A stretch of 64,000 nucleotides of DNA from a virus. The position numbers and the translations under genes were made by a program. Positions 10,633 to 64,000 of this stretch are shown piece after piece (positions within the stretch are counted from its first letter, which is position 1; every line of letters starts with the position of its first letter). The stretch lies in the UHGV virus genome UHGV-0021337; one strand, 5' to 3'. The notes beneath the pieces were generated by a model that worked only from the letters and a program-made list of their open reading frames with translations, did no database searches and was not told where the DNA came from.

Positions 10633-11043
10633 ATGAATCTATTAGATAGCACCGTACATAATGACACTGTTGTGTGCAGGTTTATGCGAAATACGTACAA
10701 AGAGGATGAATTTTCAAGAGTTGTCAATGACCTGCTACAAGTACCAAGCTTTGTAATCAAGCTAACATCTTTTGAGATACATTTTAATTATTGTAGCAAA
10801 TATTTTGTACTACCGTTATCTTTATTTGATAAGTTTAGTTCTGTGTATGTTAGTCAAGCTTATAGCCGCGATGACATGGCAGCAAACAAGAACGATGTAG
10901 AAACACTAGTTATTGCACAAAAACATAAACCTAAATCGTTGCATCTACTAGAAAAAGTTAACAATAAATGGTGTGTACCATTACATAGTCAAATACGAAT
11001 TACAAAGTCAAAAGATATCGTATTAGATGACGGCGAATTATAA
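10633..11043 (+). CDS. hypothetical protein
   Basis: 136 aa ORF; TTGTATAACA leader motif upstream; followed by a terminator. Confidence 0.3.
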   Translation: MNLLDSTVHNDTVVCRFMRNTYKEDEFSRVVNDLLQVPSFVIKLTSFEIHFNYCSKYFVLPLSLFDKFSSVYVSQAYSRDDMAANKNDVETLVIAQKHKPKSLHLLEKVNNKWCVPLHSQIRITKSKDIVLDDGEL

Positions 11044-23842: not shown

Positions 23843-23878
23843 GAGAATCGAGTGTCAAGCACTTGATTCTTTTATTGT
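23843..23878 (+). terminator. rho-independent terminator
   Basis: GAGAATCGAGTG / CACTTGATTCTT 12-bp stem (two G-U pairs), loop TCAAG, then TTTATT. Confidence 0.55.
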
Positions 23879-23884
23879 ATTACC

Positions 23885-23908
23885 ATATAATATAACTGTA
23901 AATTGAAT
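23885..23908 (+). promoter_or_regulatory. copy of a recurring phage promoter-like motif
   Basis: ATATAATATAACTGTAAATTGAAT; near-identical copies at 54171, 59664 and 63106. Confidence 0.4.
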
Positions 23909-23924
23909 TATCTGAGGAGATTGA

Positions 23925-24764
23925 ATGTTAGATGACTTGCGAAGAAGTTTAGAGTCTCATGCGGACGCTACAATACCTGGTTGGAGACAGCTTTCTAAAA
24001 TAGAGCTATGTAATAAGTATATAGACATTGATGGTGATAAAGATGCTTATCTTGAGTGTAGGAATAATCCACAAAAGTCAGCTTATTTTGCAGCAATAAT
24101 AGCGAAGTATTGGAATTCTATCAATAGGTGTTATAGTAAGGTTTATAAAACTGCGTCTGTACAAGATTGTTACGATATGGTTGTAGACGGGATTATGTGT
24201 GCGTTAAAACTTGCACCTTGGAGAAACCCAAATAACAAGCTATATAACGACCCTAAAGGTCCAGATAAAGCGATAAATGTATCTATTTCGTCTGCAATTC
24301 TTGTGTACTACCAGTTTTCAAATACTTTGAAACGAAGGGCAAACGTTGCGGCAATCAGTGTCGAATATCTACAAGATGAATTTGGAGATACAGCATTCAA
24401 AGAGGCAAATGAATTAGATGAAGAAAAAGACATTGTTGTTGAAACATTAGTTCGACAGAATTTTCAAAAACAGAACTATATCGCATCTTTTGTTATTGAT
24501 GGTGCAGCGTATGGTGACTGTTTGAAATTTACAAAAGAACATAGTGGGTATATAACGTCTCAGTTTAGTAAACGATTACTTCTAAGACATTTGAGAGCGT
24601 TAGATTCAGACTATGTTTCTATTTTTTCAAAAAGATATAGCTTAGATAAAACAAAAGTACAGGAAGCAGCAGATATTTGTTTATCTACTTCATCTTCCAG
24701 AATTGACACAGTTATTAGAAAAACATTTGAGTCATTACGTCATAGTAATTATTTTGAGGTGTAG
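23925..24764 (+). CDS. hypothetical protein
   Basis: 279 aa ORF with RBS GAGGAG. Confidence 0.35.
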   Translation: MLDDLRRSLESHADATIPGWRQLSKIELCNKYIDIDGDKDAYLECRNNPQKSAYFAAIIAKYWNSINRCYSKVYKTASVQDCYDMVVDGIMCALKLAPWRNPNNKLYNDPKGPDKAINVSISSAILVYYQFSNTLKRRANVAAISVEYLQDEFGDTAFKEANELDEEKDIVVETLVRQNFQKQNYIASFVIDGAAYGDCLKFTKEHSGYITSQFSKRLLLRHLRALDSDYVSIFSKRYSLDKTKVQEAADICLSTSSSRIDTVIRKTFESLRHSNYFEV

Positions 24765-32242: not shown

Positions 32243-32302
32243 AGAGGGATGTTCAGTTGTCTACTCCCGCCCTCTTAAAAATAAATTAAAACGGAGACTA
32301 TT
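32243..32302 (+). ncRNA. preQ1 riboswitch-like element in the transporter leader
   Basis: AGAGGG-21 nt-CCCTCT hairpin followed by the A-rich tail TAAAAATAAATTAAAAC and SD GGAG; the loop CTCC can pair with GGAG; compare B. subtilis preQ1-I AGAGG...CCCUCUAUAAAAAACUAAGG; sits just upstream of a COG1738 gene. Confidence 0.5.
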
Positions 32303-33022
32303 ATGAAGAAATTATTAAACGAATACAAAATTTTATTACGAAATGTACCTAGTCTAATTGTTGGCTTGTTTATTGTTGCAGTTGTTAGCTGTAATATACT
32401 TGCAAATAAAACAATTGTAAGTGTTGGAGATTGGTTCGCACTAGATGGAGGAATTGTTGTTAGTTGGCTTATATTCTTGTGTATGGATATGGTAACTAAA
32501 CGATTCGGACCAAAAGCAGCAACGCGTTTAACTTTAGTTGCAGCAGGTGTTAATTTACTTGTGTGTGGTTTATTCTACATTGTTAGCGTTATACCTTCTT
32601 CAGCTGATGACTATACAGCACTAAATGGAATTTTAGGCGGTACTTGGTTTATTCTGATGGATAGTACAATAGCATTTATTGTCTCAGGAATAATCAACAA
32701 TTTTGTAAACGCTGGTATAGGTAAAGCGTTCAGGAAAAATCCAGACGGAAAACTTGCATATGTTTCAAGAACTTATGTATCTACGTTTATTGGACAATTT
32801 ATTGACAACTTAATTTTTGCAGTTTTAACCTTTATGGTATTCAGCCCTATTTTCTGGGACGGATTTAGTTGGACATTCTTACAGTGTGTAACGTGTTCTT
32901 TAACAGGAGCAATTGCTGAATTATTGATGGAAATCATCTTCTCGCCTCTTGGATATAAAATTTGCAATAAATGGAAAGCAGAAGGCGTTGGCAATGAATA
33001 TCTTGAATTGGTAAAAGCCTAG
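32303..33022 (+). CDS. yhhQ: YhhQ/COG1738 (DUF165) queuosine-precursor (preQ0/preQ1) transporter
   Basis: 239 aa polytopic membrane protein; motifs CMDMVTKRFG and QFIDNLIFAVLTF align with E. coli YhhQ. Confidence 0.65.
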   Translation: MKKLLNEYKILLRNVPSLIVGLFIVAVVSCNILANKTIVSVGDWFALDGGIVVSWLIFLCMDMVTKRFGPKAATRLTLVAAGVNLLVCGLFYIVSVIPSSADDYTALNGILGGTWFILMDSTIAFIVSGIINNFVNAGIGKAFRKNPDGKLAYVSRTYVSTFIGQFIDNLIFAVLTFMVFSPIFWDGFSWTFLQCVTCSLTGAIAELLMEIIFSPLGYKICNKWKAEGVGNEYLELVKA

Positions 33023-33033
33023 TTCATACAGAG

Positions 33034-33070
33034 ACGACACGAAATACGGCATCGTGTCGTTTTCTTTTTG
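33034..33070 (+). terminator. rho-independent terminator after the transporter gene
   Basis: ACGACACGA / TCGTGTCGT 9-bp stem followed by TTTCTTTTT. Confidence 0.6.
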
Positions 33071-33851: not shown

Positions 33852-34029
33852 ATACTACACCGAGCGTGAGCTTGATTACAACGAAATTGAAACTCCATCC
33901 TCATATCCAAAAGAAGTAGTCCTAGACAAAATCAAAAATCTAGATAAACGAGATATAAAGTTTAAGCCTGTACTCGATCCTCAGTGTGTTATAACTACAA
34001 CTTGGACTATAAGTAATGACGATAACTAA
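33844..34029 (+). CDS. hypothetical small protein
   Basis: ATGA coupling; the track start 33823 lies inside the upstream gene. Confidence 0.3.
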   Translation: MIKYYTERELDYNEIETPSSYPKEVVLDKIKNLDKRDIKFKPVLDPQCVITTTWTISNDDN

Positions 34030-34081
34030 TTGATTGTTTATATAAATTATATTATAATAAGCATATAAGAGAGGTGTATAT

Positions 34082-34306
34082 ATGAATAACGAGAAACACG
34101 AAGTAACAAAAGAAGAAGTTGGAGAACAGATCTGGGAACTTTTCAAAGGTGACTCTAAAAAACATAGAACGCATAACTATGAAAAAACATATGATGGAAT
34201 TAGTCAATGTTTCACGTTACGTAATAGTAAACGATATTTAATAACACAGAATTCAAAAGATAACAACGATATAAAAGTCGAAAGATATATAAAAAATCAT
34301 CACTAA
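34082..34306 (+). CDS. hypothetical small protein
   Basis: 74 aa ORF with RBS AGAGAGGTG. Confidence 0.3.
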   Translation: MNNEKHEVTKEEVGEQIWELFKGDSKKHRTHNYEKTYDGISQCFTLRNSKRYLITQNSKDNNDIKVERYIKNHH

Positions 34307-34320
34307 GGTTTAAGTTAATT

Positions 34321-34524
34321 ATGAACTGTCCTAGATATATAAAAGACAAAATTCTTTTACGAGCAAAATACGCTATGAAATTTATGAAATTAGATTGCGA
34401 TATATGCAATTGGATGCAGGCTAATAATATAGATAGTGAATACTCTCTTCCCGGATATGTAGAAAGTCTGTGTGGTGGTTACAGTGCAGCTGAAGAAACA
34501 CTTCAAGACATTGAAAATTCATAA
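34321..34524 (+). CDS. hypothetical small Cys-containing protein
   Basis: 67 aa ORF. Confidence 0.3.
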   Translation: MNCPRYIKDKILLRAKYAMKFMKLDCDICNWMQANNIDSEYSLPGYVESLCGGYSAAEETLQDIENS

Positions 34525-34579
34525 AATTCGTGTTAATTAGACATAAGTTATTGTATAACAAATACAAACAGGAGGTATT

Positions 34580-35530
34580 ATGCCATATTATTTTTCTGGA
34601 GCATATAATCAGGCCTTGAAAATACGGTTAAATGTTGACCAACTATTCTCAGTGTATCATGAGAAAAAATTGATTGAAAAAACAATCTTATATAAAAGAG
34701 AACATCCTGAATATACCGCAAAAATTTTCTTAGACAGTGGAGCTTTCACGCATTTCCAGAATATGAAGAAAAAGGGAATCACGCTTACTGACAACGACAT
34801 AAAGGACTACACAGATAAATATCTTTCTTTCTTAAATGAATGGGGCGAAGACTTGGAGTGCTTTGTTGGCGTCGATAGTGTACCAAATCCAGAACACGTT
34901 GACCCAACGTTTGTTCATAAAACTTGGGCAAATTATTTGTATATGTGGGAAAGGTTAAAACCGAGTATTCGTCATAAATTGATTCCTGTTTTCCACTTTG
35001 GGGAAGATTTCAATGAATTGAAGAAGTGGCTTGAATATAGACATCCAGATGGAAGTAAAGTTGAGTATCTTGGTCTTGCAATTTCGTTGGAAGGAAATCG
35101 AAAAGTAAGAATTGCTTGGGGACAAGAAGCCGAAAGAATAATCAAAGCATCTTCTAATCCAAATGTTAAGACTCACGCGTTTGGTGTTGGGGTTAAGAGC
35201 GTTATGGAAAATATAAACGTAACTTCGACGGATGCCACGAGTTGGTTGAAGCGTGCAGCATATGGAATGATTTCGGTAGACGATAAGACTGTATATATAA
35301 GTGACTTGCAAGAACAGAAGTCCGACGGCAGACATCTTAAAGATAAGTCACTAGCTTATCAAGAAGAAGTATTTAAGAAAATAAAAGAAAAAGGCTTTAC
35401 GCTTGAGCAGTTAGCTACAGACAATTACGCGAGAGCGGAATTTAACATTTTGGATACGTTAGAATGGTATAATAAATTAGAAGCATCAAAACGTATCGAA
35501 AAGGGCGCAAAGGTTGATTTAGGTTGGTAA
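34580..35530 (+). CDS. dpdA: DpdA-like DNA-guanine transglycosylase (TGT superfamily)
   Basis: TGT substrate-pocket motif KIFLDSGAFTHFQ (compare LDSGGFQ); HAFGVGV; TSTDATSWLKRAAYG matches the catalytic Asp region FDCVxPTRxARxG; no Zn-binding Cys cluster, as in DpdA. Confidence 0.55.
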   Translation: MPYYFSGAYNQALKIRLNVDQLFSVYHEKKLIEKTILYKREHPEYTAKIFLDSGAFTHFQNMKKKGITLTDNDIKDYTDKYLSFLNEWGEDLECFVGVDSVPNPEHVDPTFVHKTWANYLYMWERLKPSIRHKLIPVFHFGEDFNELKKWLEYRHPDGSKVEYLGLAISLEGNRKVRIAWGQEAERIIKASSNPNVKTHAFGVGVKSVMENINVTSTDATSWLKRAAYGMISVDDKTVYISDLQEQKSDGRHLKDKSLAYQEEVFKKIKEKGFTLEQLATDNYARAEFNILDTLEWYNKLEASKRIEKGAKVDLGW

Positions 35531-37428
35531 TCTCAGACGAGATGAAACAAGATGTTGTTGAGTTCTATAAAACAAACTCAACAACAATTACTTGTGAACA
35601 ATTTCATATAACTTGGGACAGGCTTAAAAAGATACTGGCTGAATATGATGTAGCTCCACACGATGCAAAAATTAATAGAGAACTGACATCGTTATACAGA
35701 TTCGGAGTTACTAATGCAGGAAAATCTGTAGAGTTACAGGAAAAAGCAAAACAAACAACAGCGTCAAGATATGGTAGTTCAAATTACAGGAATCACGACA
35801 AAGCTCGTCAGACCCGTATAAACAAAGATGGCTCATTAGAAGCATCATATAGAAAAGCTCAGAAAAGACAAGAAGAAACGAACTTGGCTAAGTATGGAGT
35901 TAAAAGTTATTTTCAAACTGAATTATTTCAAGAACAGTCTAAGGATACTTGCTTAGAACGTTACGGCAAAGAGTTCTATCGTCAAACTCAAGAATATCAG
36001 GACCGCGTTAAAGAAACATCTTTACAAAAATATGGAGTAGAACACTATACTCAATCTGACCAGTATAAAACAAAAGTAAGAGATACTTGCCAAGAAAGAT
36101 ACGGCAACGATTCGTGGTTTGGCTCGGAAGCTGGTAAGAATGCTATCAAAGACAGTTGTTTACAGAGGTATGGTGTTTCTAACGCTATGCAGTCGTATGA
36201 AGTGATAACGCGAGCAAAAGAAAAGCTTGTTCAGAAATATGGTGTTGACAACGTTATGAAATCTTCAGATATCAGAAGTAAGCAAGCACAGTCGAGTCGT
36301 TGTTCTAATTTTGAGCAAGAAGTTCAGCATTGGTTGTCAAATAGAAACGTTGCTTTTACTACTCACTATGTTATTAAACAAGGAGGTTTGATTCACGAGT
36401 TTGATATTGCTTTATACGAAGGTAATCAGCTCGTTTGTCTAGTAGATTGTGACGGGACTTACTATCATGGATACAACGACGATATAAATGGTAGATCTGT
36501 AAACCCATACATAGATGAATATAGAATGCTGCTTGTTCCTAAAGATGTTTTATTTCTTGTGTTACTTCCAGACACTTGGCAAGAGCAGCTTGAAGAATAC
36601 TTTAATAACAAACAAAGTTACGAGCAAGTCATATTCACCTGGTGTAAATCTATAGACTTTCCATATCCTAACATAGACAATGTTGAGGCTTCCTATAAGT
36701 CACTGGTAAAGGCAGATGTGAGTAAATTTTCGATGAACGCTCGATATGGAATGCGAGTTATCGACGCTTTTCATAAATCTATCTGGAAAGCAAATAGAAA
36801 AGGTTTCTTGAGCCCTTATGCTGCTTGGCGTGATGAAGAATTGCTACGCAGATGTATCAATAATCGTATAATTTATAAAGGTACTAACTTAGACCCTTCC
36901 AAGGTTCTATACGGTTTTAGTGCTGCAAAGATTGCTCCTAAAGTGTCGATATTTAATCCTTATCTGGCTAAGTATTTGATAAATAAGTACTTGAACGAAT
37001 TTACAACTGTTTTTGACCCTTGCTCTGGATATAGCGGCAGACTTTTAGGCGCAACATCATTGGGTAAACATTATGTAGGACAAGATATAAATGCTACAAC
37101 AGTTGAAGAATGTTTACAAATACGTGATAAGCTCAATCTCGACGCTGAATTATCTGTTGTTGATTCTTTGAGTACTACAGGAAGTTATGAGGCTTTATTT
37201 ACCTGTCCTCCTTATAGTGACAAAGAAAACTGGAACCAAGAAATTTTGAATCTAACATGCGATGAATGGATTACTCGATTTATAGAAAACTATAAATGTA
37301 AAAGATATTTATTCATTGTAGACAAAACAGAAAAGTATAAAGATTATATTGTTGAAGAAATAGAGAATAAATCACATTTTAGTGAGAATATTGAATATGT
37401 TATATTGATAAATAGAGGTAATATATGA
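35524..37428 (+). CDS. multidomain protein: about seven 23-aa [KR]YG repeats, a PD-(D/E)xK (Vsr/DUF559-like) nuclease-like domain, and a Dam-like (D12-class) methyltransferase with CPPY in place of DPPY
   Basis: Repeats aa 70-250 (AKYGV..., ERYGK..., QKYGV..., ERYGN..., QRYGV..., QKYGV...); EFDIAL...LVDCDGTYYH; motif I VFDPCSGYSGRLLG and motif IV FTCPPY; overlaps the dpdA stop by 4 nt. Confidence 0.5.
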   Translation: MVISDEMKQDVVEFYKTNSTTITCEQFHITWDRLKKILAEYDVAPHDAKINRELTSLYRFGVTNAGKSVELQEKAKQTTASRYGSSNYRNHDKARQTRINKDGSLEASYRKAQKRQEETNLAKYGVKSYFQTELFQEQSKDTCLERYGKEFYRQTQEYQDRVKETSLQKYGVEHYTQSDQYKTKVRDTCQERYGNDSWFGSEAGKNAIKDSCLQRYGVSNAMQSYEVITRAKEKLVQKYGVDNVMKSSDIRSKQAQSSRCSNFEQEVQHWLSNRNVAFTTHYVIKQGGLIHEFDIALYEGNQLVCLVDCDGTYYHGYNDDINGRSVNPYIDEYRMLLVPKDVLFLVLLPDTWQEQLEEYFNNKQSYEQVIFTWCKSIDFPYPNIDNVEASYKSLVKADVSKFSMNARYGMRVIDAFHKSIWKANRKGFLSPYAAWRDEELLRRCINNRIIYKGTNLDPSKVLYGFSAAKIAPKVSIFNPYLAKYLINKYLNEFTTVFDPCSGYSGRLLGATSLGKHYVGQDINATTVEECLQIRDKLNLDAELSVVDSLSTTGSYEALFTCPPYSDKENWNQEILNLTCDEWITRFIENYKCKRYLFIVDKTEKYKDYIVEEIENKSHFSENIEYVILINRGNI

Positions 37429-37721
37429 AAAGTTATTATCATTATTATGATGTATGTTTTACAAAAGATGCTGCTGTTTTTGATAGAGAATTTACAACTG
37501 ATGACTGTGAAGTAATTGAAGGTTTAGATGATGTTACATCAAATGAATTACAACTAATCATTAAAGTGATTGAATACGTTAGACCCGATATTGAAAGAAT
37601 ACGTGTATTATATAATGTATATGAACATGACGATGATGCTGAAGATGATATATGTTTAACATGCGATAGCATATTAGATGTTGTTAGAGATAATGAAGGT
37701 AAATTTGTTTTAAATTGCTGA
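37425..37721 (+). CDS. small highly acidic protein (possible DNA mimic)
   Basis: 98 aa, Asp/Glu-rich (HDDDAEDDI). Confidence 0.35.
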   Translation: MKSYYHYYDVCFTKDAAVFDREFTTDDCEVIEGLDDVTSNELQLIIKVIEYVRPDIERIRVLYNVYEHDDDAEDDICLTCDSILDVVRDNEGKFVLNC

Positions 37722-37745
37722 TATAATGAATTTATTACATTTTAG

Positions 37746-37774
37746 TTGATAAATATTTGTTTTTATGTTACAAT
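37746..37774 (+). promoter_or_regulatory. sigma-A-like promoter
   Basis: TTGATA, 17-nt spacer, TACAAT, 20 nt upstream of ATG 37795. Confidence 0.4.
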
Positions 37775-37794
37775 AAAATAAAAAGAGGTTTATT

Positions 37795-38196
37795 ATGTTA
37801 ACTAAAAATAATTGGCAAAACGCTTTTGATATGTTAAATGATTATGCTAATATTGATGATAGATTTTACGGTGGTGTATGTTCTTATAAATTTTTAAGTT
37901 TTGAAGGTGTTAAAAAGTTAGTTGAAAATAAGTATTTAAATTTAACTGAGAGACAAAACTATTCACCTATGGTTAAAAATTGGATTAAATTTATAGAGAC
38001 TAATAATTTACAAGACAAAATATTTTTTCATGGTTATATTGTAGAGAAAGGTAGATTTGATAGACGTATTTCTATAGAAGGTATACAAGCTAACGCCAAT
38101 ATTAAATTTTCAGAGGATGAATTAAAATCCATTGTAGATTTTTGTTATGGCGCAGATACACTTAGAATCTCTCCATTATATGTTTGGTGGGATTAA
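37795..38196 (+). CDS. hypothetical protein
   Basis: 133 aa ORF with RBS AAGAGG. Confidence 0.35.
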   Translation: MLTKNNWQNAFDMLNDYANIDDRFYGGVCSYKFLSFEGVKKLVENKYLNLTERQNYSPMVKNWIKFIETNNLQDKIFFHGYIVEKGRFDRRISIEGIQANANIKFSEDELKSIVDFCYGADTLRISPLYVWWD

Positions 38197-38287
38197 ATTA
38201 AACTATAATCATTATGTCTAATAACGATTGTAATGAATCTGATGACTTCTAGATAGCTGCTAAATTAAAAATATAGGAGATATAGTT

Positions 38288-38455
38288 ATGCCTAAATTAA
38301 ATATAAATGAAGGTTTTGATGAATTATATAATCATAAGTGTGCAGATGTTTTACGTGCTGAATTAGATGGAAATTATGATGATAATGTGCATGAAGATAA
38401 TTTATTACAAGATGTTTTATTTCATTTTGAAAACAGAGTAGATAAAAATAAATAA
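38288..38455 (+). CDS. hypothetical small acidic protein (55 aa)
   Basis: RBS GGAGATA upstream; not in the supplied track (under 60 aa). Confidence 0.3.
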   Translation: MPKLNINEGFDELYNHKCADVLRAELDGNYDDNVHEDNLLQDVLFHFENRVDKNK

Positions 38456-38538
38456 AACTTCGATGTTGTGTTATAATATAAGAAAGTAAGAAAATAAACT
38501 GAGAGTAAATATTTTGGAGACTTAAATAGGAGCAATTT

Positions 38539-38688
38539 ATGAGATATAGTAATTTTCACCGTCATTCCATGTACAGCAATTTGCCCGCCGGGATTATAAT
38601 GATTTGTTTAGGGATGTGTGAGCTCTTTCAAGGGCTATCATCGGAAGTACGCAAAAGAACAATAAGTCAGTATCACGTATTTAGTTGA
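38539..38688 (+). CDS. hypothetical small hydrophobic protein (49 aa)
   Basis: RBS TAGGAG; local GC content higher than surroundings. Confidence 0.2.
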   Translation: MRYSNFHRHSMYSNLPAGIIMICLGMCELFQGLSSEVRKRTISQYHVFS

Positions 38689-38713
38689 TTCTTCCTCGAT
38701 AATCCCTTATAAT
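38685..38713 (+). promoter_or_regulatory. strong sigma-A-like promoter
   Basis: TTGATT, 17-nt spacer, TATAAT, upstream of ATG 38741. Confidence 0.45.
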
Positions 38714-38740
38714 AAATGTAATAAATAAGAGGTAGATAGT

Positions 38741-39064
38741 ATGAAATTTTCAGATATGGATGCAAGACAACAAAAAGCTTTTCGCAACATTAAATACGCA
38801 GCAGATGATTTGTTAGGTGGTTTAGAAAACACGTTACTCGATTATGATGAACAAGATCAAGAATATATCGACGCCGAAAAATTACTCTCGAATCACTCCG
38901 AACTTGTTAATCAACTTTATAAGAAGGCTACTACAGAACTTTACGGGCCAGGTTTTTGTGGTTTTGGAAAAGAGGCTCAGATGATTATTCGGGATATAAA
39001 TTTCTGCGGCAAAGTGTGGTTGATGGAACGTTGTGAAAAACGAATAACAAAAGAAGGCTATTGA
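38741..39064 (+). CDS. hypothetical protein
   Basis: 107 aa ORF with RBS AAGAGG. Confidence 0.35.
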   Translation: MKFSDMDARQQKAFRNIKYAADDLLGGLENTLLDYDEQDQEYIDAEKLLSNHSELVNQLYKKATTELYGPGFCGFGKEAQMIIRDINFCGKVWLMERCEKRITKEGY

Positions 39065-39109
39065 TTGTAGCATAAACATTGTATAACATAAACATAACAG
39101 GAGGTATAA

Positions 39110-39832
39110 ATGGCAACAGCATTAGTTACAGGAACAAGCTCGGGAGTGGGTAAAGCAACAGCTCTTAAACTTCTAGCTATGGGAATAGATGTTATAGGTC
39201 TTGATTGGAAAGATAGTACAATTCATAGACCTCATTATTTTCACTTCAAATGTGATGTAAGCAAGTATGAAGAACTTCCTTCGCTTGACAGTTTAGGAGG
39301 CATTGAGTACATTGTTAACAATGCAGGAATAGTAACACCTAAAGCAGACGCTATCGCAGTTAATCAGATTGGATATATAAATGTATTGCAAAAATATGCG
39401 GATAACAATCCGAAGTTAAAAAGCATTGTAATTATTGGTTCATCTGCCTCGGTCAAGGGCTACGACAATCGAGAATATTGCACTTCGCAAGGTGCAAGAG
39501 ATGCATTAACCAAGTGGGCCGCTAACAACTATGGTAACGACCCTAGACACGTTTTAGTCAACGAACTTCGTCTCGATGGTATTGTAGCAGCAGACCCGGA
39601 AAAGGGTATTGAAGGTACTACTTTGGAACCTGAGCTTTATGCAGCAGATGGATTGATGGACCAAATAGCTAATCTGAGCATTTTAAAAAGGTTGGCTACT
39701 GTCGAAGAGATTGCAGAATGGATTTATTTTATTCTTGTAGTTAACACAATTGTAACTGGGCAGATAATAGATGTTGACGGAGAACTCATGGGAGCTTTCA
39801 AATTTGTTCCTTACAAAGGGTGGAATGACTAG
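39110..39832 (+). CDS. short-chain dehydrogenase/reductase (SDR) family protein
   Basis: Rossmann TGTSSGVGKA, NNAG motif; active-site region reads SS...YCTSQ (YxxxQ instead of YxxxK). Confidence 0.6.
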   Translation: MATALVTGTSSGVGKATALKLLAMGIDVIGLDWKDSTIHRPHYFHFKCDVSKYEELPSLDSLGGIEYIVNNAGIVTPKADAIAVNQIGYINVLQKYADNNPKLKSIVIIGSSASVKGYDNREYCTSQGARDALTKWAANNYGNDPRHVLVNELRLDGIVAADPEKGIEGTTLEPELYAADGLMDQIANLSILKRLATVEEIAEWIYFILVVNTIVTGQIIDVDGELMGAFKFVPYKGWND

Positions 39833-39833
39833 T

Positions 39834-40715
39834 ATGAAGATAATGTGCTTAACACCTTGTCTGATGTTAGATAATACCAGAGCAATAAACGCTAAGTCAA
39901 TACAAAATAACATAGATGTTCTTAAACTCGATGAATATGTAATCTATGACCAGATGTTTGCACCTAGCGATTTTAACTCGAAATGTACATATATAGGTCA
40001 CGCAGATAAACGAATGGGCTGGGCAGTACCAAGAAATGCTTTACTTAAGTATTTTTATGATTCTGACTTTGACTATGCGTTTTTTATTGATGCAAATTCT
40101 GTTCCGTCTAAACCTACGCTAAATGATTTACTGAGCATAATAAGAAGTCTTAGAGCAGGTGAGTTATCTTTCTGCGACGCTATTTTTAGCACATTAGGTA
40201 TGTGGGTAAGTCAAGAGCGTATAATGTGCAAATCCTTACCTGACCACCTCGAAAATGTTCATCTAGTACCCGCTCGTTGTGATAAAAGTTACAACTGGAT
40301 GCACGGATTATTTGTAAAGAATTTCAAGAAGTATTATGGCCAGGAATTCTATATGGATGAAAGATGTCATGTATTAGAAGGAACTCCAGAAGATGTATTC
40401 TTTGCTCGTCTATTAAGGAAGTATGCAAATTGTTGGGTTGCTCCTACAGTGGTAATCAACAAACCTTCTTCTAATGCTTCTTGTACAATGGCAAATGGTA
40501 AAGGTACTTATGATTATCCGCCTGTATTGTTTGATAAAGAAGATGAATACATTTCTGAACTCTCTCAGAAAAACGGATATCATCACTGTAATAGAAGTGT
40601 ACGACCTAGCGAAGTTGTTATACCTCGCGTTTCGGAGTATAAAGATTTAGTTACTCCGTATAAATCAAGACAAAAGAAAGTACAAGAAACTTCAAGAAAA
40701 CAAGTACTTTTTTAA
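39834..40715 (+). CDS. hypothetical protein, possibly glycosyltransferase-like
   Basis: Start MKIMCLTP directly after the SDR stop; FFIDANS is DXD-like; track start 39771 overlaps the SDR gene. Confidence 0.35.
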   Translation: MKIMCLTPCLMLDNTRAINAKSIQNNIDVLKLDEYVIYDQMFAPSDFNSKCTYIGHADKRMGWAVPRNALLKYFYDSDFDYAFFIDANSVPSKPTLNDLLSIIRSLRAGELSFCDAIFSTLGMWVSQERIMCKSLPDHLENVHLVPARCDKSYNWMHGLFVKNFKKYYGQEFYMDERCHVLEGTPEDVFFARLLRKYANCWVAPTVVINKPSSNASCTMANGKGTYDYPPVLFDKEDEYISELSQKNGYHHCNRSVRPSEVVIPRVSEYKDLVTPYKSRQKKVQETSRKQVLF

Positions 40716-40778
40716 CATATTCTTTAGTAATCACGAAAATGCTTTTGTATATAATTTCAAATGGAGGACAATTGAATA

Positions 40779-41900
40779 ATGATTATTAGAACTGAAAAAT
40801 TACAGCCTGCTTGTAGTAAGTTACTTCCTGCAGTAGACTCAACCGCTATTGCAGAAATAACCGATGTACTCGAGTTAAAAACTGTATGTAAGATGCTCTA
40901 TATAAATGTTACGAATAGAGAGTATTTTGCACAAGTTAAAATTGAACTTGACGATGTTGTTGATTTCCACGCAACTGTTAGTGCAAACCTGTTTTTAAGA
41001 CTTGTTGCTCAGATTACGACCGAAACCGTTGAGCTCAACATTTCAGACACAACTTTGAAAATGAAAGGTAATGGGTCTTATGACATTCCGTTGATATTTG
41101 ACAACGACAAGTTGATGGACCTTCCAGCAATCGAAATCAAAAATCCGACTGCAGAACTCTCTGTAGACAGTGACATTCTTCAAAGCATCATGAACTACAA
41201 CTCTAAAGAACTTATGAAGGATTTGATTCTTCAACCTGTTCAGAAAATGTATTACATTGACCAAGAAGGTTGTATTACATTCACGACTGGAGCGTGTGTA
41301 AATAACTTCCATCTTGACCAGCCGATAAAAGTACTTCTTAATCAGCGTCTTGTTAAACTTTTCAAGTTGTTTAACAATGGCAAAGTTAAAGTAACTCTCG
41401 GTCATGATCCGTTATCAGAAACGATAATTCAGACAAAGATTAGATTTGAATCAGATATGGTTTGTTTAACTGCAATACTTTCGTGTGATGACGATATGGT
41501 CAATAGAGTTCCGGCAGTAGCTATCAGAGGAAGAGCTAATAAAAAATATCCGTACAATATTACTATTAGTAAAGCTGAATTGAATGAAACGATAAACAGA
41601 CTTCTTCTTTTCTCGAGCACAAGTACTCTTAATAGAATTAAAGCAGATAGTAAATTTGTATTTGAAAATTCTTGTGTTAGAGTTTACGACGTTACTCAAG
41701 CAAATGTAGAAAAAGTTTACTATAAAACTGGTGTACTTCCCGAAGGTGAACAGTATGTAGCAACGTTTGACTTAAACGATTTAAAACACGCACTAGATAG
41801 CAGCGATGATGACTTCGTTACATTTGGTTTCGGAGACCACGCAGCTCTTGTAATTATTTCTAAATCAGTTAGACACGTTGTTCCGGAAGTAGCTGCTTAA
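40779..41900 (+). CDS. DNA polymerase sliding clamp (beta-clamp-like)
   Basis: 373 aa, the size of DnaN; sits in the replication-accessory region. Confidence 0.4.
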   Translation: MIIRTEKLQPACSKLLPAVDSTAIAEITDVLELKTVCKMLYINVTNREYFAQVKIELDDVVDFHATVSANLFLRLVAQITTETVELNISDTTLKMKGNGSYDIPLIFDNDKLMDLPAIEIKNPTAELSVDSDILQSIMNYNSKELMKDLILQPVQKMYYIDQEGCITFTTGACVNNFHLDQPIKVLLNQRLVKLFKLFNNGKVKVTLGHDPLSETIIQTKIRFESDMVCLTAILSCDDDMVNRVPAVAIRGRANKKYPYNITISKAELNETINRLLLFSSTSTLNRIKADSKFVFENSCVRVYDVTQANVEKVYYKTGVLPEGEQYVATFDLNDLKHALDSSDDDFVTFGFGDHAALVIISKSVRHVVPEVAA

Positions 41901-45028: not shown

Positions 45029-46162
45029 ATGAAAGATACGATTAAATGGTCACACAGTAAACTTGCAACAATTTTAAGCTGCCCGATGTCTTATTACTTG
45101 AATTACATACAAGGTATTCAACCTAAGAAAACAAAGCCTGCTTTTGAAATAGGAAGTGCAGTCCATTGGGGTATAGAACACAATACATACGACTTGAGGG
45201 AATACTACATTGAAGAAGAAGCACTTGGAGAAGAATTTACTCAAGAGCAGCTTCTTGCACAAGCAATGGATTACTTTTATTTATCTTTTAAAGACAGCAT
45301 CTATGGAATGATTCTATGTGACAATAAAACTGGTGAAAGATACAATTTATTAGAAGAAAAGCACGAAGGTTTTATGAATGCAAAGTTAGACTCTTATATA
45401 GATGAATTAGAGCCGCACAATTTCTTGGGAATTGTCGATTTGCTTTTTAGAACAGACAAAGGATTCATCATAATTGACTTCAAGACTTCTAGCGCAGAAC
45501 CAGACTGGAGCACATATTTAGAACAGCTTTATAGGTACATATATCTTGTTAAATCTCGTTATCCAGATGTTCCTATTTTGAAAATAGGTATTGTAAATAT
45601 TCGTAAAGCTCAGATATACAAAAGAAAGGATACGCCAAGTCAAGACTATTTTAACATTCTGTGCGAAGAATACTTTAAGCATCCGGAACAGTATTTAGAC
45701 TATCATGAGTTTCCTACCGAAACAATAAACGAAAAGTTTATGGAAGAATATATAAAGAATTTATCTCGAATGGTAGATACTGCATATACTATTGATAAAA
45801 ACGCTGCTTGGTATATAAACTTTGCAGAGGCTGAGGGAAAATATGGAAAATCAGATTACTATGATATTTTCTATAAAACAAAAAATGCGTATAAGAAATA
45901 CAAAATAAAAGATAAAGTCTGGTCTGAAGAGAAACAAGCCCTTGTAAAGTTTAGAGAGTGTATTCCACTAGATATGGAAGTTATCGACAATAGAAAAATT
46001 GTAAATCATTATAACGATTATGTTAAACTAGAAAAAGAACATCCTGATAATTTTATAGAGTGGATTAAAGAAAATTACATCATTGACGACAGTCTAATTC
46101 GACTATATGAATTGACAAAATTAAAAATAAAAGAAAAGAAACTAGAGGAAGAACGAATATGA
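45029..46162 (+). CDS. PD-(D/E)xK exonuclease (RecB/Cas4-like fold, no Fe-S cysteines)
   Basis: GIVDLLFRTDKGFIIIDFKTS (D...D/ExK). Confidence 0.45.
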   Translation: MKDTIKWSHSKLATILSCPMSYYLNYIQGIQPKKTKPAFEIGSAVHWGIEHNTYDLREYYIEEEALGEEFTQEQLLAQAMDYFYLSFKDSIYGMILCDNKTGERYNLLEEKHEGFMNAKLDSYIDELEPHNFLGIVDLLFRTDKGFIIIDFKTSSAEPDWSTYLEQLYRYIYLVKSRYPDVPILKIGIVNIRKAQIYKRKDTPSQDYFNILCEEYFKHPEQYLDYHEFPTETINEKFMEEYIKNLSRMVDTAYTIDKNAAWYINFAEAEGKYGKSDYYDIFYKTKNAYKKYKIKDKVWSEEKQALVKFRECIPLDMEVIDNRKIVNHYNDYVKLEKEHPDNFIEWIKENYIIDDSLIRLYELTKLKIKEKKLEEERI

Positions 46163-54256: not shown

Positions 54257-54556
54257 ATGGCAAAAGTAGTAGCAAAAGAATTCAGAAATGATAAAGGATA
54301 CAAGTCGGTCGAATCACTTGACAGCTTGTTAAGACGCTTTAAGCGTAAAGTTGCAAACGAAGGTATTATTCAGTCCTTAAAGGAACAGGAATACTACGTC
54401 AGTCACGGACAGCAACGCAGACTTGAAAAAGAAGCCGCTGTTAGACGTATTCAACGTAACAATGCTAAACAGCAACTTAAAGAAGACGTTTTAGCTGGAA
54501 AAGTCCATTTAAGTAAAACTCAAACGAAAAAGCTTGGACTTGGAGGTAAACGATGA
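54257..54556 (+). CDS. rpsU: ribosomal protein S21 homologue with a basic C-terminal extension
   Basis: LDSLLRRFKRKVANEGIIQSLKEQEYYVSHGQQRRLEKEAAVRR matches the bS21 core (LRRFKR ... EfYEKP ... R.K). Confidence 0.55.
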   Translation: MAKVVAKEFRNDKGYKSVESLDSLLRRFKRKVANEGIIQSLKEQEYYVSHGQQRRLEKEAAVRRIQRNNAKQQLKEDVLAGKVHLSKTQTKKLGLGGKR

Positions 54557-57459: not shown

Positions 57460-57759
57460 ATGAATAAACAAGAATTTCTCGACAGAATAAAAAGTACTAA
57501 TATACCTACGTTTGAACAATATGAAGAAATACAGTATGTTTATACTTGGTGCCCATTTATAAACGAAGTGACTGGTAAAGACCAAATTGCAAAGTTATGG
57601 GATATTGGTGGAATAAGACTTATAAGAGATATGAAGGCGACTGCAGAAAAGGCTCAAGCTCTTGAACATCAAATTGCTATTGCAGACGCTAAAGTTCAAA
57701 AGTTACGTAATGCACTGATGGACTTAGCAATAGGGGGAAATGGAGAAGTAGATGAATAA
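57460..57759 (+). CDS. hypothetical protein
   Basis: ATG 57460 follows AGAGGTG; the track start 57451 is GTG. Confidence 0.3.
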   Translation: MNKQEFLDRIKSTNIPTFEQYEEIQYVYTWCPFINEVTGKDQIAKLWDIGGIRLIRDMKATAEKAQALEHQIAIADAKVQKLRNALMDLAIGGNGEVDE

Positions 57760-58690
57760 TTGGGTATCATATAAAAACGGAAATTATCAAGTTCAGCTAA
57801 ACCTGAAGAATGGTACTAAGATACGACTTATAGAAGGCAATAAACCTGTTGCAGATACGATAGAGTCAATGGACTTGAAGATAACTAATATGTGCGATGT
57901 GGGTTGCCCTATGTGTCACGAAAATAGCTTGCCCACTGGAGCACACGCTGATTTATTTGCTCCTTCCTTCTTAGATACTTTGCACCCTTACACCGAGTTA
58001 GCAATAGGTGGTGGGAATCCTCTTGCTCATCCTGACCTCTATAAATTTCTGTGCTTATGTAAAGAGCGTAAATTTGTTCCTTCTATGACTGTTAATCAAA
58101 AACATTTTATGGAACAGTTTGAGTTCTTAAAACAACTTAGAGACGAGGGTCTTATATATGGCTTGGGAGTATCCTTAATAGATGCAAACGCAGAATTCAT
58201 AGATATGTGTAAAGAGTATGGTCCTAATCTTGTTATACATGTGATAAATGGTATTGTGTCTACGGCTGAGCTATTCAAGCTTGCACATAAACAGTTGAAA
58301 GTGTTGATACTGGGGTATAAAGTTTTTCGTCGTGGAGGAAAACTTTATTGTAAGGATAAAGTAAAAATTGAAGAGGCAAAGAAAACACTTAAATCCCTCT
58401 TACCCGTAATGCTTAAGACAAAGTGGTTTGATGTTGTAAGTTTTGATAATCTTGCACTTAAACAACTCGATGTTAAATCAATTTTATCAGAAAAAGAGTG
58501 GCAGCAGTTTTACATGGGAGATGACGGTTTAGAAGGCGAACAAACTTCTGCAACGATGTTTGTGGACTTAGTAGAAAGAGAGTTCGCTAAAAACTCTTGC
58601 TCAAAAGAACGTTATCCACTTATGAATACAGTAGAAGATATGTATAACTATTTGCGAGGTAAATATGAAGATATCATACAAACTGTTTAA
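57752..58690 (+). CDS. radical SAM enzyme of unknown specificity
   Basis: CxxxCxxC cluster ITNMCDVGCPMCHEN; downstream AIGGGNPLAHPD (GGEP-like). Confidence 0.5.
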   Translation: MNNWVSYKNGNYQVQLNLKNGTKIRLIEGNKPVADTIESMDLKITNMCDVGCPMCHENSLPTGAHADLFAPSFLDTLHPYTELAIGGGNPLAHPDLYKFLCLCKERKFVPSMTVNQKHFMEQFEFLKQLRDEGLIYGLGVSLIDANAEFIDMCKEYGPNLVIHVINGIVSTAELFKLAHKQLKVLILGYKVFRRGGKLYCKDKVKIEEAKKTLKSLLPVMLKTKWFDVVSFDNLALKQLDVKSILSEKEWQQFYMGDDGLEGEQTSATMFVDLVEREFAKNSCSKERYPLMNTVEDMYNYLRGKYEDIIQTV

Positions 58691-60669: not shown

Positions 60670-60760
60670 GGAAGCTTGGGGGAGCGGTTAAACTCAACGC
60701 TCTTGAAAAGCGTCGAAGGTGAGTAGCCTTCCGTCCGTTCGAATCGGACAGCTTCCGCCA
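60670..60760 (+). tRNA. tRNA-Ser (anticodon UGA), class II with long variable arm, CCA encoded
   Basis: Acceptor GGAAGCT/AGCTTCC; anticodon arm ACGCT-CTTGAAA-AGCGT; long variable arm CGAAGGTGAGTAGCCTTCCG; T-arm GTCCG-TTCGAAT-CGGAC; 3' GCCA. Confidence 0.7.
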
Positions 60761-62984: not shown

Positions 62985-63105
62985 AGAGACAGAAGAAGAG
63001 CGGAAGGAACGACTTAAATACTGGAGATGCACTACAACTAGAGTTAAAGAAAGTAAAAAAGTTTATAATCGTAAAAAATTACAAAATCCACTTGATTCTA
63101 TTTAT
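62941..63105 (+). CDS. possible small, very basic protein (GTG start; overlaps the previous ORF out of frame)
   Basis: AAAGGAG 7 nt upstream of GTG 62941; KKISIKIPSPVRVKETEEERKERLKYWRCTTTRVKESKKVYNRKKLQNPLDSIY. Confidence 0.2.
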
Positions 63106-63127
63106 TGATTACCTTATAATATAGTTG
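63106..63127 (+). promoter_or_regulatory. copy of the recurring 22-nt promoter-like motif
   Basis: ATAATATAGTTGTAAATTAAAT, identical to 54171-54192. Confidence 0.4.
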
Positions 63128-63153
63128 TAAATTAAATAAAGAGGGTAAACGAT

Positions 63154-63479: not shown

Positions 63480-64000
63480 ACGAAGCCAGATACAGCAGCG
63501 TTTTGTTAGAGCGTGTGGCTGGTCAGGGATAAGCGACGTACACGTGGAAGTCCTTAGAAGCAGTATTAGTGGAAAGAATTAAACAGCCTTTAACATCGAG
63601 AATGTGGTGTAGTAGGAACACGCCTGCTTTGGGAGCAGGAGTCGCAGTGCAAATCTGACATTTTCGACCAACATGGGGATAAGAAAGGTTTCGATTGCAG
63701 TTAAATCCAAAGTGAACCTGCAAGACTCGAGTTCAATTCTCAATATCTTCTCCAAACCAGCTCTTTTGCTGGAACATCTGTACAGAGGTAAGCAGTAACA
63801 CGTCCTAAATTACTGCACTCCAAATTGCTGAGAGTATAAAACAAGGCAAGCGTTGGCAGGCTACGCTACTTGCCCAAAGCCGCTGCTAATTGACGGCACG
63901 GAGAGGTGATTATGCTAGTCCTCTCAAAATGATTGAATAGCTCAATTTGGTAGAGCTTAAAGACTTAGGAAAGAAACTTCTTGATATCCGAAGCCTCAGG
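63480..64000 (+). ncRNA. GC-enriched, ORF-free structured RNA region (tRNA-like pieces within a larger ornate structure); runs off the window edge
   Basis: No ORF over 30 codons; GC content jumps relative to flanks; many perfect hairpins (GCAGTAA/TTACTGC, GGCAAG/CTTGCC, GAGAGG/CCTCTC, TTGCAG/CTGCAA); tRNA-like acceptor/T-arm/CCA segments. Confidence 0.3.
63597..63670 (+). tRNA. tRNA-Pro(UGG)-like gene with a degenerate T-arm (possible non-canonical or pseudo-tRNA)
   Basis: Acceptor CGAGAAT/ATTTTCG (one G-U), discriminator A, encoded CCA; D-arm GTGT-AGTAGGA-ACAC; anticodon arm CCTGC-TTTGGGA-GCAGG (U33, G37); the T-stem has only 3 bp and the loop reads TGCAAAT. Confidence 0.35.

Follow-up and report, generated by a model that had tools for sequence, protein, structure and literature searches.

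What does a phage do with an enzyme of the DpdA type when no genes for making a 7-deazaguanine base are found beside it? This question is raised by a gene at positions 34580-35530 (plus strand) of UHGV virus genome UHGV-0021337, of which a stretch of 64,000 nucleotides (nt), called the window here, was analysed. A first-pass annotation of the window described the gene product as a DpdA-like DNA transglycosylase and pointed out that the 5' leader of the gene is almost identical to that of a gene for a short-chain dehydrogenase/reductase (SDR) at 39110. We consider it likely that the gene encodes a DpdA1-type transglycosylase belonging to a salvage-fed 7-deazaguanine DNA-modification cassette, that the inserted base is elaborated further by partner enzymes, and that dpdA and the SDR gene formed an operon that was later split by insertions.

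The open reading frame (ORF) of dpdA is intact, with an ATG at 34580, a stop codon at 35528-35530 and a product of 316 amino acids (aa). The peptides KIFLDSGAFTHFQ, HAFGVGV and TSTDATSWLKRAAYG are all found in its translation, and signatures of the tRNA-guanine transglycosylase (TGT) superfamily without zinc-binding cysteines, as claimed by the first-pass annotation, are indeed present. The protein has only one cysteine, C94, so that a zinc site of the CxCxxC...H type is impossible. The protein matches PHROG 887 with an expect value (E) of 2.5e-38, and a tblastn search with it retrieved 150 phage records. The top matches are Streptococcus phages Dp-1 and MS1 (32% identity, E 1e-30 to 1e-32); the DpdA of Bacillus phage Flasso is 33% identical, and Queuovirinae proteins annotated as "7-deazaguanosine inserting enzyme DpdA" are 27-28% identical. 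The Dp-1 and MS1 proteins (gp7) belong to the DpdA1 subfamily and, aligning over 94% of the window protein, are its closest characterized relatives. The DNA of Dp-1 contains dPreQ1, which replaces about 1.7% of G, and the modification of CAjan DNA is lost on deletion of dpdA (PMC6884629). The enzyme of the window is itself a new member of the known DpdA1 family, annotated here as a DNA guanine/7-deazaguanine transglycosylase without a zinc site. Its family has 256 metagenomic members that fall into two length classes of about 315 and about 395 aa, and it was not found among 185,579 species-representative cellular genomes. A megablast search of positions 34000-40800 against 50,697 phage records gave no match.

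An AlphaFold2 model of the window DpdA made from 22 homologues (predicted local distance difference test score of 88) has the (beta/alpha)8 barrel of the TGT superfamily. Residues D52, S53, H139, K197, G202, D218 and S221 are invariant in an alignment of the window protein with the DpdA proteins of Dp-1, Flasso and VogelGryff and two short DpdA proteins. D99 is invariant across the close DpdA family, where E171 and the GLAIS-LE and HAFGVG motifs are also invariant or almost so, and the aligned residue is an aspartate in Dp-1, Flasso and VogelGryff. In the Salmonella DpdA protein, D95, D130 and D256 serve as the general acid/base, the base recognition residue and the nucleophile, respectively (PMC10164549). 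Going by the order of the motifs and not by superposition on the Salmonella structure (PDB 7UI4), D52, D99 and D218 would correspond to these residues, and the same three roles are predicted for them. The zinc site is absent from every phage DpdA1 protein aligned. Its loss is therefore a trait of the family and not peculiar to the window protein, and what the first-pass annotation had presented as a notable feature is normal for these phage enzymes. The annotation had also named a match to a TGT with an intact zinc site as the result that would speak against a DNA enzyme. Such a match was looked for: the Pfam TGT family (PF01702) did not match the window protein or 10 of its relatives at E<=1, and the motif of the zinc subdomain is absent.

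Comparison with known systems shows which features the window shares with each of them. Dp-1 DpdA, like the window protein, lacks the zinc site, and it has a C-terminal tail of the QxxLF type. The two phages have the same synteny, in which a transporter gene and dpdA are followed, after other genes, by genes for a DnaN clamp, RecU, dUTPase, RecA and the clamp loader. Dp-1 differs in that it carries its own preQ1 synthesis genes (QueF, QueC, QueD, QueE and FolE) directly upstream, whereas none of these lies near dpdA in the clade of the window. Homologues of FolE, QueC, QueD, QueE and QueF were found neither in the 64-kb window nor in any related locus that bears the SDR; they occur only in Dp-1-like loci, which are without the SDR. 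Dp-1 also lacks the SDR with a YxxxQ motif, the GT-A glycosyltransferase (GT), the CofD-like protein and the nucleotidyltransferase, whereas the window clade has the first two of these with or without the latter two. The DpdA proteins of Queuovirinae (9g, CAjan and VogelGryff), which insert preQ0 or G+, are of the DpdA1 family, share the invariant residues and have yhhQ and a clamp-subunit gene nearby. They differ from the window in their low identity, in the full preQ0 pathway with or without an amidotransferase, and in the absence of SDR and GT partners. The DpdA of the bacterial Dpd system of Salmonella Montevideo is more distant. It has a CXCX2CX22H zinc site and a large insertion, Ins8, and needs the ATPase DpdB (PMC10164549). 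The window protein, with its single cysteine, is 14% identical to it, and neither a DpdB-like gene nearby nor a PADLOC match to the Dpd system was found in the window.

The base is probably supplied by a transporter. A YhhQ/Vut_1-family membrane protein is encoded at 32303-33022 (plus strand), 1.6 kb upstream of dpdA. It matches Pfam Vut_1 with an E of 1.5e-26, and its score of 46.8 bits against NCBIfam TIGR00697, "queuosine precursor transporter", is just below the cut-off of 50.95. All related modules examined carry the gene wherever the flanking sequence is long enough, and the window YhhQ is probably an importer of the 7-deazaguanine precursors preQ0 or preQ1.

Two further enzymes are encoded downstream of dpdA. 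The gene at 39110-39832 (plus strand) encodes a classical SDR of the NAD type, with matches to Pfam adh_short and adh_short_C2 and with a TGxxxGxG motif (TGTSxGVG), NNAG, S111 and Y123. An aspartate at the end of strand beta-2 suggests that NAD is used over NADP. The protein has the SDR fold by sequence and an atypical active site in which the Ser-Tyr-Lys triad of classical SDRs is incomplete. The catalytic YxxxK is replaced by Y123-x-x-x-Q127, a position confirmed by alignment to the YxxxK motif of PDB 2zk7, and Gln127 is invariant in the alignment of all four phage lineages described below. The SDR is more conserved than DpdA, with a mean column identity of 77% versus 58%. No SDR orthologue was found in cultured phages, in which searches with the SDR and the GT gave at most 31% identity or no match, and the SDR search of the species-representative genomes gave only generic SDRs of about 25% identity. 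The GT gene follows at 39825-40715 (plus strand). Its start was corrected from 39771 to 39825, which leaves an overlap of 8 nt with the SDR stop codon and a product of 296 aa ending in KQVLF. The predicted fold is Rossmann-like with acidic nucleotide-sugar/metal motifs, as in GT-A (GT2-like) enzymes, and the neighbour that the first-pass annotation had called glycosyltransferase-like can be described more precisely as a GT-A glycosyltransferase. In some related loci, which are numbered here with the prefix L, the GT is followed by a CofD-like protein of 565-571 aa and an NTP_transf_3 (IspD/MobA-like) nucleotidyltransferase (L005:10879-13306, L038:7226-9660, L009 and L013). Both genes are absent from the window. 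They resemble the CofD/CofC pair of F420 synthesis, which makes a nucleoside diphosphate-activated group and transfers a phospho-group to a hydroxyl.

All genes of the window are on the plus strand, the G+C content is about 35%, and a replication block comes after a structural block. The gene order of the window clade is PolA, a small ORF, YhhQ, further genes, DpdA, SDR, in some members the GT, in some of these the CofD-like protein and NTP_transf_3, and then the clamp and RecU. The SDR gene directly follows dpdA in most relatives (L007-L015, L038 and L042). There is no promoter between the two genes in L007-L015, and a strong AGTTGAT-N17-TATAAT promoter precedes dpdA. In the window the two genes are separated by small ORFs and by a gene for a DUF7487/methyltransferase-like protein of 634 aa (35524-37428, plus strand). 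This protein has N-terminal DUF7487 repeats (Pfam E 3.5e-45), matches PHROGs 12131 and 3339, which carry the label "homing endonuclease", and ends in a domain resembling Type II DNA methyltransferases with the motifs FDPCSGYSG and TCPPY (PADLOC MTase_II, E about 1e-5). It is found only in the window and L001-L004 and is absent from L006 and L038, whose DpdA proteins are 86-90% identical to that of the window, and from all more distant relatives. The absence of this ORF from L006 and L038, together with the adjoining dpdA and SDR genes of relatives, indicates that the two genes formed a single ancestral operon, which insertions later broke up. Within the first codons of the inserted ORF there is a perfect inverted repeat of 13 bp (35553-35586).

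The partner genes are present in a nested manner, with the SDR as the constant member. The SDR occurs without the GT in L001, L006 and L007; the SDR and GT occur together in the window, L036, L010, L011, L012 and L015; and the SDR, GT, CofD-like protein and nucleotidyltransferase all occur in L005, L009, L013 and L038. No locus has the GT but no SDR, and none has the CofD-like/nucleotidyltransferase pair but no GT. Even relatives with a DpdA about 90% identical to that of the window conform to this pattern, which suggests an order of steps. Distant GT homologues (36-43% identical) lead to three further phage lineages. One is represented by L032, a contig of 49 kb that encodes ParB and a sigma factor and has the order DpdA-SDR-GT-YhhQ. 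Another, L033/L034, is on a 40-kb contig with a DNA polymerase III alpha subunit, and its order in L033 is DpdA-YhhQ-SDR-GT. The third, L040/L041, has PolA and an SNF2 helicase (L040 contig, 49 kb). Each of them has a DpdA (profile E 1e-7 to 1e-41), a YhhQ, a YxxxQ SDR and a GT, in shuffled orders. The module was found only on metagenomic phage-like contigs, from at least four phage lineages, at least one of which comes from the human gut. Its recurrence in four lineages suggests that the inserted base is most likely elaborated and probably glycosylated on DNA. No description of a recurrent cassette of DpdA, YhhQ, YxxxQ SDR and GT-A was found in the literature searched, and nothing relevant was found there that links DpdA with an SDR, CofD, a glycosyltransferase or the gut virome.

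How might uptake of the base be controlled? The yhhQ gene is preceded by a structured 5' leader (32243-32302, plus strand) in which a stem, P1 (AGAGGG/CCCTCT), closes a 21-nt loop with CTCC and is followed by an A-rich tail and a GGAG ribosome-binding site. Between the window and L005, which have DpdA proteins of 67% identity, the 60-nt leader hardly differs. In the relatives (copies at L042:3386-3438, L041:8248-8291, L033:7507-7553 and L040:9402-9446, among others) the hairpin has 11 distinct P1 sequences, all of them fully paired with an invariant closing G-C pair. A hand tally of the inner four pairs over these 11 stems found 44 of 44 to be canonical or G-U. An A-rich tail and a Shine-Dalgarno site lie 3' of the hairpin across loci. 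The preQ1-I riboswitch (RF00522) likewise has a small hairpin, an A-rich tail and a Shine-Dalgarno site able to pair with the loop, a pairing that in the yhhQ leaders was judged by eye only. The leaders also share with it a U after the 5' strand of P1 and a UC or AC before the 3' strand in most variants, as well as their place ahead of a gene for a yhhQ-type transporter, one of the known targets of preQ1 riboswitches (PMC11625349). The covarying P1, the A-rich tail, the apparent occlusion of the Shine-Dalgarno site and the queuosine-precursor gene downstream are thus all found. The loops are longer (10-21 nt), and no Rfam family reached its gathering cut-off in the yhhQ leaders of the window and 7 relatives. 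RF00522 is the top full-length sub-threshold match for the leaders of L033, L041 and L042 (19.3, 18.7 and 14.1 bits, against a cut-off of 39), and the window leader, with its 21-nt loop, has no Rfam match even at E<=10. We read the yhhQ leader as a candidate preQ1-I-like riboswitch, perhaps a phage-carried variant of that class.

A second theme concerns the C-terminal tails of DpdA and the GT. A phage DnaN-like sliding clamp is encoded at 40779-41900 (plus strand), directly downstream of the module, and matches PHROG 947, "DNA polymerase processivity factor", with an E of 4e-11. The dpdA gene adjoins a phage clamp gene in four unrelated phages, namely the window phage, Dp-1, Flasso and VogelGryff. 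The endings of both proteins resemble the bacterial beta-clamp-binding motif, QL[SD]LF. The DpdA1 proteins end in NRQRRLF (Dp-1), KQLRLF (L017), SQGKLF (Flasso), VMELF (VogelGryff), KKSLF (L005) and KVDLGW (window), and the GT proteins of the window clade end in RKVTLF, RKISLF, NKVSLF or KQVLF. In the window the two C-termini are encoded at 35500-35530 and 40690-40715, and both tails are disordered in the predicted models. Basic tails ending in QxxLF, KVxLF or KVDLGW were observed in the window and in L017, L030, L031 and L035. Neither the SDR nor the CofD-like protein has such a tail; of the two nucleotidyltransferase copies checked, one lacks it and the other, from L038, ends in AKELF. The tails suggest the idea that DpdA and the GT could be DNA-acting enzymes stationed at the clamp, with small molecules as the substrates of the other enzymes of the module. 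If true, binding of the clamp by the tails would explain how a "post-replicative" base exchanger gains access to newly synthesized DNA. No paper tying DpdA to a sliding clamp was found in the literature searched.

The leaders of dpdA and the SDR gene remain to be explained. The dpdA leader (34551-34579, plus strand) has a -10-like box, TTGTATAACA, a 6-nt spacer and AACAGGAGGTAT, which includes a perfect AGGAGGT ribosome-binding site. Pairwise alignment and motif counts identify the SDR leader (39079-39109, plus strand) as its near-duplicate. When ATTGTATAACAAATACA-AACAGGAGGTAT (34550-34578) is aligned with ATTGTATAACATAAACATAACAGGAGGTAT (39078-39107), 28 of 30 positions are identical with one gap. 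The near identity reported in the first-pass annotation is therefore real, and only its details need correction: the spacer is 6 nt in the dpdA leader and 7 nt in the SDR leader, not 8 nt, and the ATG lies 1 and 2 nt further on, respectively. The match is beyond chance. A comparison of 45-nt upstream regions within the window (3655 pairs) ranks this pair first with a score of 20 (next best 17 and 14, mean 6.0, standard deviation 1.4). Exact copies of AACAGGAGGTAT occur in the window only in these two leaders (0.32 expected with one mismatch allowed), and the composite TGTATAAYA-N10-30-GGAGG has the same two sites only (0.02 expected). The parts are more widespread. AGGAGGT occurs 6 times in the window and precedes 5 of about 90 genes; an exact copy of the box TTGTATAACA is also found immediately ahead of a gene at 10633; one-mismatch versions of it are found upstream of polA, a nuclease gene at 45029 and a ligase gene; and the clamp gene is preceded by a related box, TTGTATATAAT. 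In L001, L006 and L038 the upstream region of dpdA retains a TGTATAAY box, at a distance from the start codon of about 30 nt in the first two and about 75 nt in the third, and in L001 and L006 the box also lies about 30 nt upstream of the SDR gene and of the clamp gene.

Canonical promoters of the sigma-70 type are found further upstream of both genes. A consensus scan reported TTGATT-N17-TATAAT at 34030-34058 (plus strand, 10 of 12 positions), ahead of two small ORFs that are followed by dpdA, and again at 38685-38713 (plus strand), ahead of a 107-aa ORF (38741-39064) that is followed by the SDR gene; the latter is conserved in L036. Very similar promoters (cTTGATTc-N-ccTTATAATA...GTAAAT) precede several small ORFs, at 33068, 34030, 37746 and 38685. 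Promoters of this kind also precede the genes at 23925 and 63154 (regions 23855-23924 and 63084-63153), and these two regions are the second most similar upstream pair in the window.

Does the similarity of the two leaders have a regulatory meaning? It is plausible that dpdA and the SDR gene are expressed at matched levels, both sharing a putative promoter class and the same strong kind of ribosome-binding site. The alternative, to which we give appreciable weight without preferring it, is that chance or recombination brought a common -10-like box next to a strong ribosome-binding site, for example as the scar of a mosaic exchange at a hot spot for small-ORF insertion. In favour of this alternative, related boxes, most of them with one mismatch, stand before the polA, clamp, nuclease and ligase genes, and the ORF content of the yhhQ-dpdA and dpdA-SDR intervals varies among close relatives. 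The composite leader is absent from all 35 related loci examined, and L036, the closest relative of the SDR region, is without about 26 nt of the SDR leader. The leader is thus the result of a recent, lineage-specific homogenization or duplication, and the word "conserved" in the first-pass annotation does not hold for an element that is specific to this phage. The consensus promoter scan reports neither leader, a clear -35 hexamer is absent, and no conserved RNA fold was found in either, for which reason a structured RNA was rejected. Of the "promoter/leader" claimed in the annotation, what stands is a first half with a -10-like box and a second half with a strong Shine-Dalgarno site; the promoter was not recovered by the scan. 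A leader without meaning fits less well with the top-ranking pair linking exactly the two genes that are adjacent in relatives, with the rare AGGAGGT in both leaders and with the TGTATAAY box retained upstream of dpdA and the SDR gene in relatives. Co-regulation with the SDR and GT, as first proposed, draws its support mainly from comparative genomics; the gene neighbourhood gives strong backing to a functional link, and regulation through the leader is no more than plausible.

The leaders are not the only point on which the preferred reading, that of a DNA-modifying salvage cassette, can be questioned. Besides the phage-specific occurrence of the leaders and their absence from the promoter scan, several observations weigh against it. 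The window DpdA is unmatched by Pfam, NCBIfam and PADLOC models, and PDB sequence and profile searches gave only noise; its close clade is known from metagenomes alone. The catalytic lysine of the SDR is replaced. The window is part of a genome, and related contigs are 118-205 kb, so that synthesis genes could sit elsewhere. The best structural matches of the GT are the wall-teichoic-acid glycosyltransferases TarP, which is prophage-encoded, and TarS, so that a role at the cell surface is possible. These matches lend something to the view that DpdA inserts plain preQ0 or preQ1 and that the SDR and GT, with the CofD-like protein and nucleotidyltransferase of relatives, form an unrelated neighbouring module, one possibility being modification of wall teichoic acid or capsule by CDP-ribitol-type chemistry and TarP-like glycosylation for superinfection exclusion. 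We regard this, the main rival of the proposed mechanism, as rather unlikely, as the presence pattern is nested, the YxxxQ SDR and the GT accompany DpdA and YhhQ in four lineages in shuffled and sometimes interleaved order, no SDR/GT without DpdA was found in cultured phages or species-representative cellular genomes, the SDR is retained where the GT and nucleotidyltransferase are absent, and the tail of the GT resembles both the DpdA tail and the clamp-binding motif. A phage TGT that places salvaged preQ1 or queuine in host or phage tRNA, and so tunes translation rather than modifying DNA, is very improbable. The zinc subdomain and the match to Pfam TGT are missing, the nearest relatives are the DpdA1 proteins of phages with chemically shown, dpdA-dependent deazaguanine in their DNA (PMC6884629), and the gene lies in the replication module by the clamp gene, in synteny with Dp-1. 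The two tRNAs detected in the window are tRNA-Ser(TGA) and one whose anticodon, read by eye, looks like UGG and not like that of a queuosine substrate of the GUN type. The two tRNA genes lie at 60670-60760 and 63598-63666; tRNA-Ser(TGA) was called by ARAGORN and the second by Rfam only (47.5 bits).

The salvage cassette could work as follows. YhhQ would import preQ1 or preQ0, so that the base would be salvaged and not made. By homology with tRNA TGT and Salmonella DpdA, Asp218 of DpdA would attack C1' of deoxyguanosine in phage DNA and displace guanine, with Asp52 as the general acid/base. Free preQ1 or preQ0 would then resolve the covalent intermediate and leave the modified base in DNA, in a double displacement of the TGT type. 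The SDR and GT would elaborate the base further, a glycosylated derivative being the most likely product, and in relatives with the CofD-like/nucleotidyltransferase pair a phosphodiester-linked group may extend it. A speculative route is that the SDR, with tightly bound NAD, converts the aminomethyl group of preQ1 to a hydroxymethyl group in a redox-neutral reaction and so provides a hydroxyl for the GT; a 7-hydroxymethyl-type handle is a possible product of the SDR. In the window, where the operon is split, the near-identical leaders now ahead of dpdA and the SDR gene would plausibly keep their expression matched. Taken to its full extent, the scheme would give an undescribed 7-deazaguanine derivative through riboswitch-controlled uptake by YhhQ, processing by the SDR, insertion by DpdA, glycosylation on DNA by the GT-A enzyme, addition of a phosphodiester group by the CofD-like protein and nucleotidyltransferase of relatives, and tethering of DpdA and the GT to the clamp. 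This complete scheme is put forward tentatively, as a proposal with rather less than an even chance of being right in all its parts.

Other assignments were considered and set aside. Queuine as the substrate was set aside given that the riboswitch-like leaders suggest ligands of the preQ1 type and that a bulky Ile168 lies, by motif-level comparison, at the presumed counterpart of Val233 of TGT. The SDR as a replacement for QueF is chemically unlikely and was kept as a distant possibility only. A radical-SAM protein of 312 aa is encoded at 57752-58690; as QueE or a queuine lyase it was rejected, since its matches to radical-SAM models are weak and generic and it does not resemble the QueE proteins of Dp-1 and Flasso. 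A gene for an SGNH/GDSL hydrolase often lies beside yhhQ (L005:6940-7557, L007, L012, L016, L032:10574-11134 and L041:9075-9710) and is missing from the window. In L005:3212-5931, L006:5214-7964 and L012:4109-6819 the PolA gene is split into two ORFs or interrupted; in the window it is a single ORF of 832 aa. A phage-encoded homologue of ribosomal protein S21 is found at 54257-54556 (Pfam E 1.8e-14).

In T-even phages, 5-hydroxymethylcytosine in DNA is glucosylated by phage glycosyltransferases, and this protects the DNA from host nucleases. The proposed system would be a functional analogue only, in that a non-canonical phage DNA base is decorated by a phage glycosyltransferase. It differs in the base, in post-replicative exchange versus entry through the deoxynucleoside triphosphate pool, and in its GT-A fold versus the GT-B fold of the T4 glucosyltransferases.

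Phage DNA is known to carry eight 7-deazaguanine derivatives (PMC10516641). According to the literature searched, none of them is glycosylated or involves an SDR, a GT-A or a CofD-like enzyme, and no report of a sugar on 7-deazaguanine in DNA was found there. The module is thus a testable lead to new DNA chemistry, one that could affect restriction, CRISPR targeting and defences based on DNA glycosylases. If the proposal is true, it would represent hypermodification of phage DNA that is fed purely by salvage, with riboswitch-like control on the importer.

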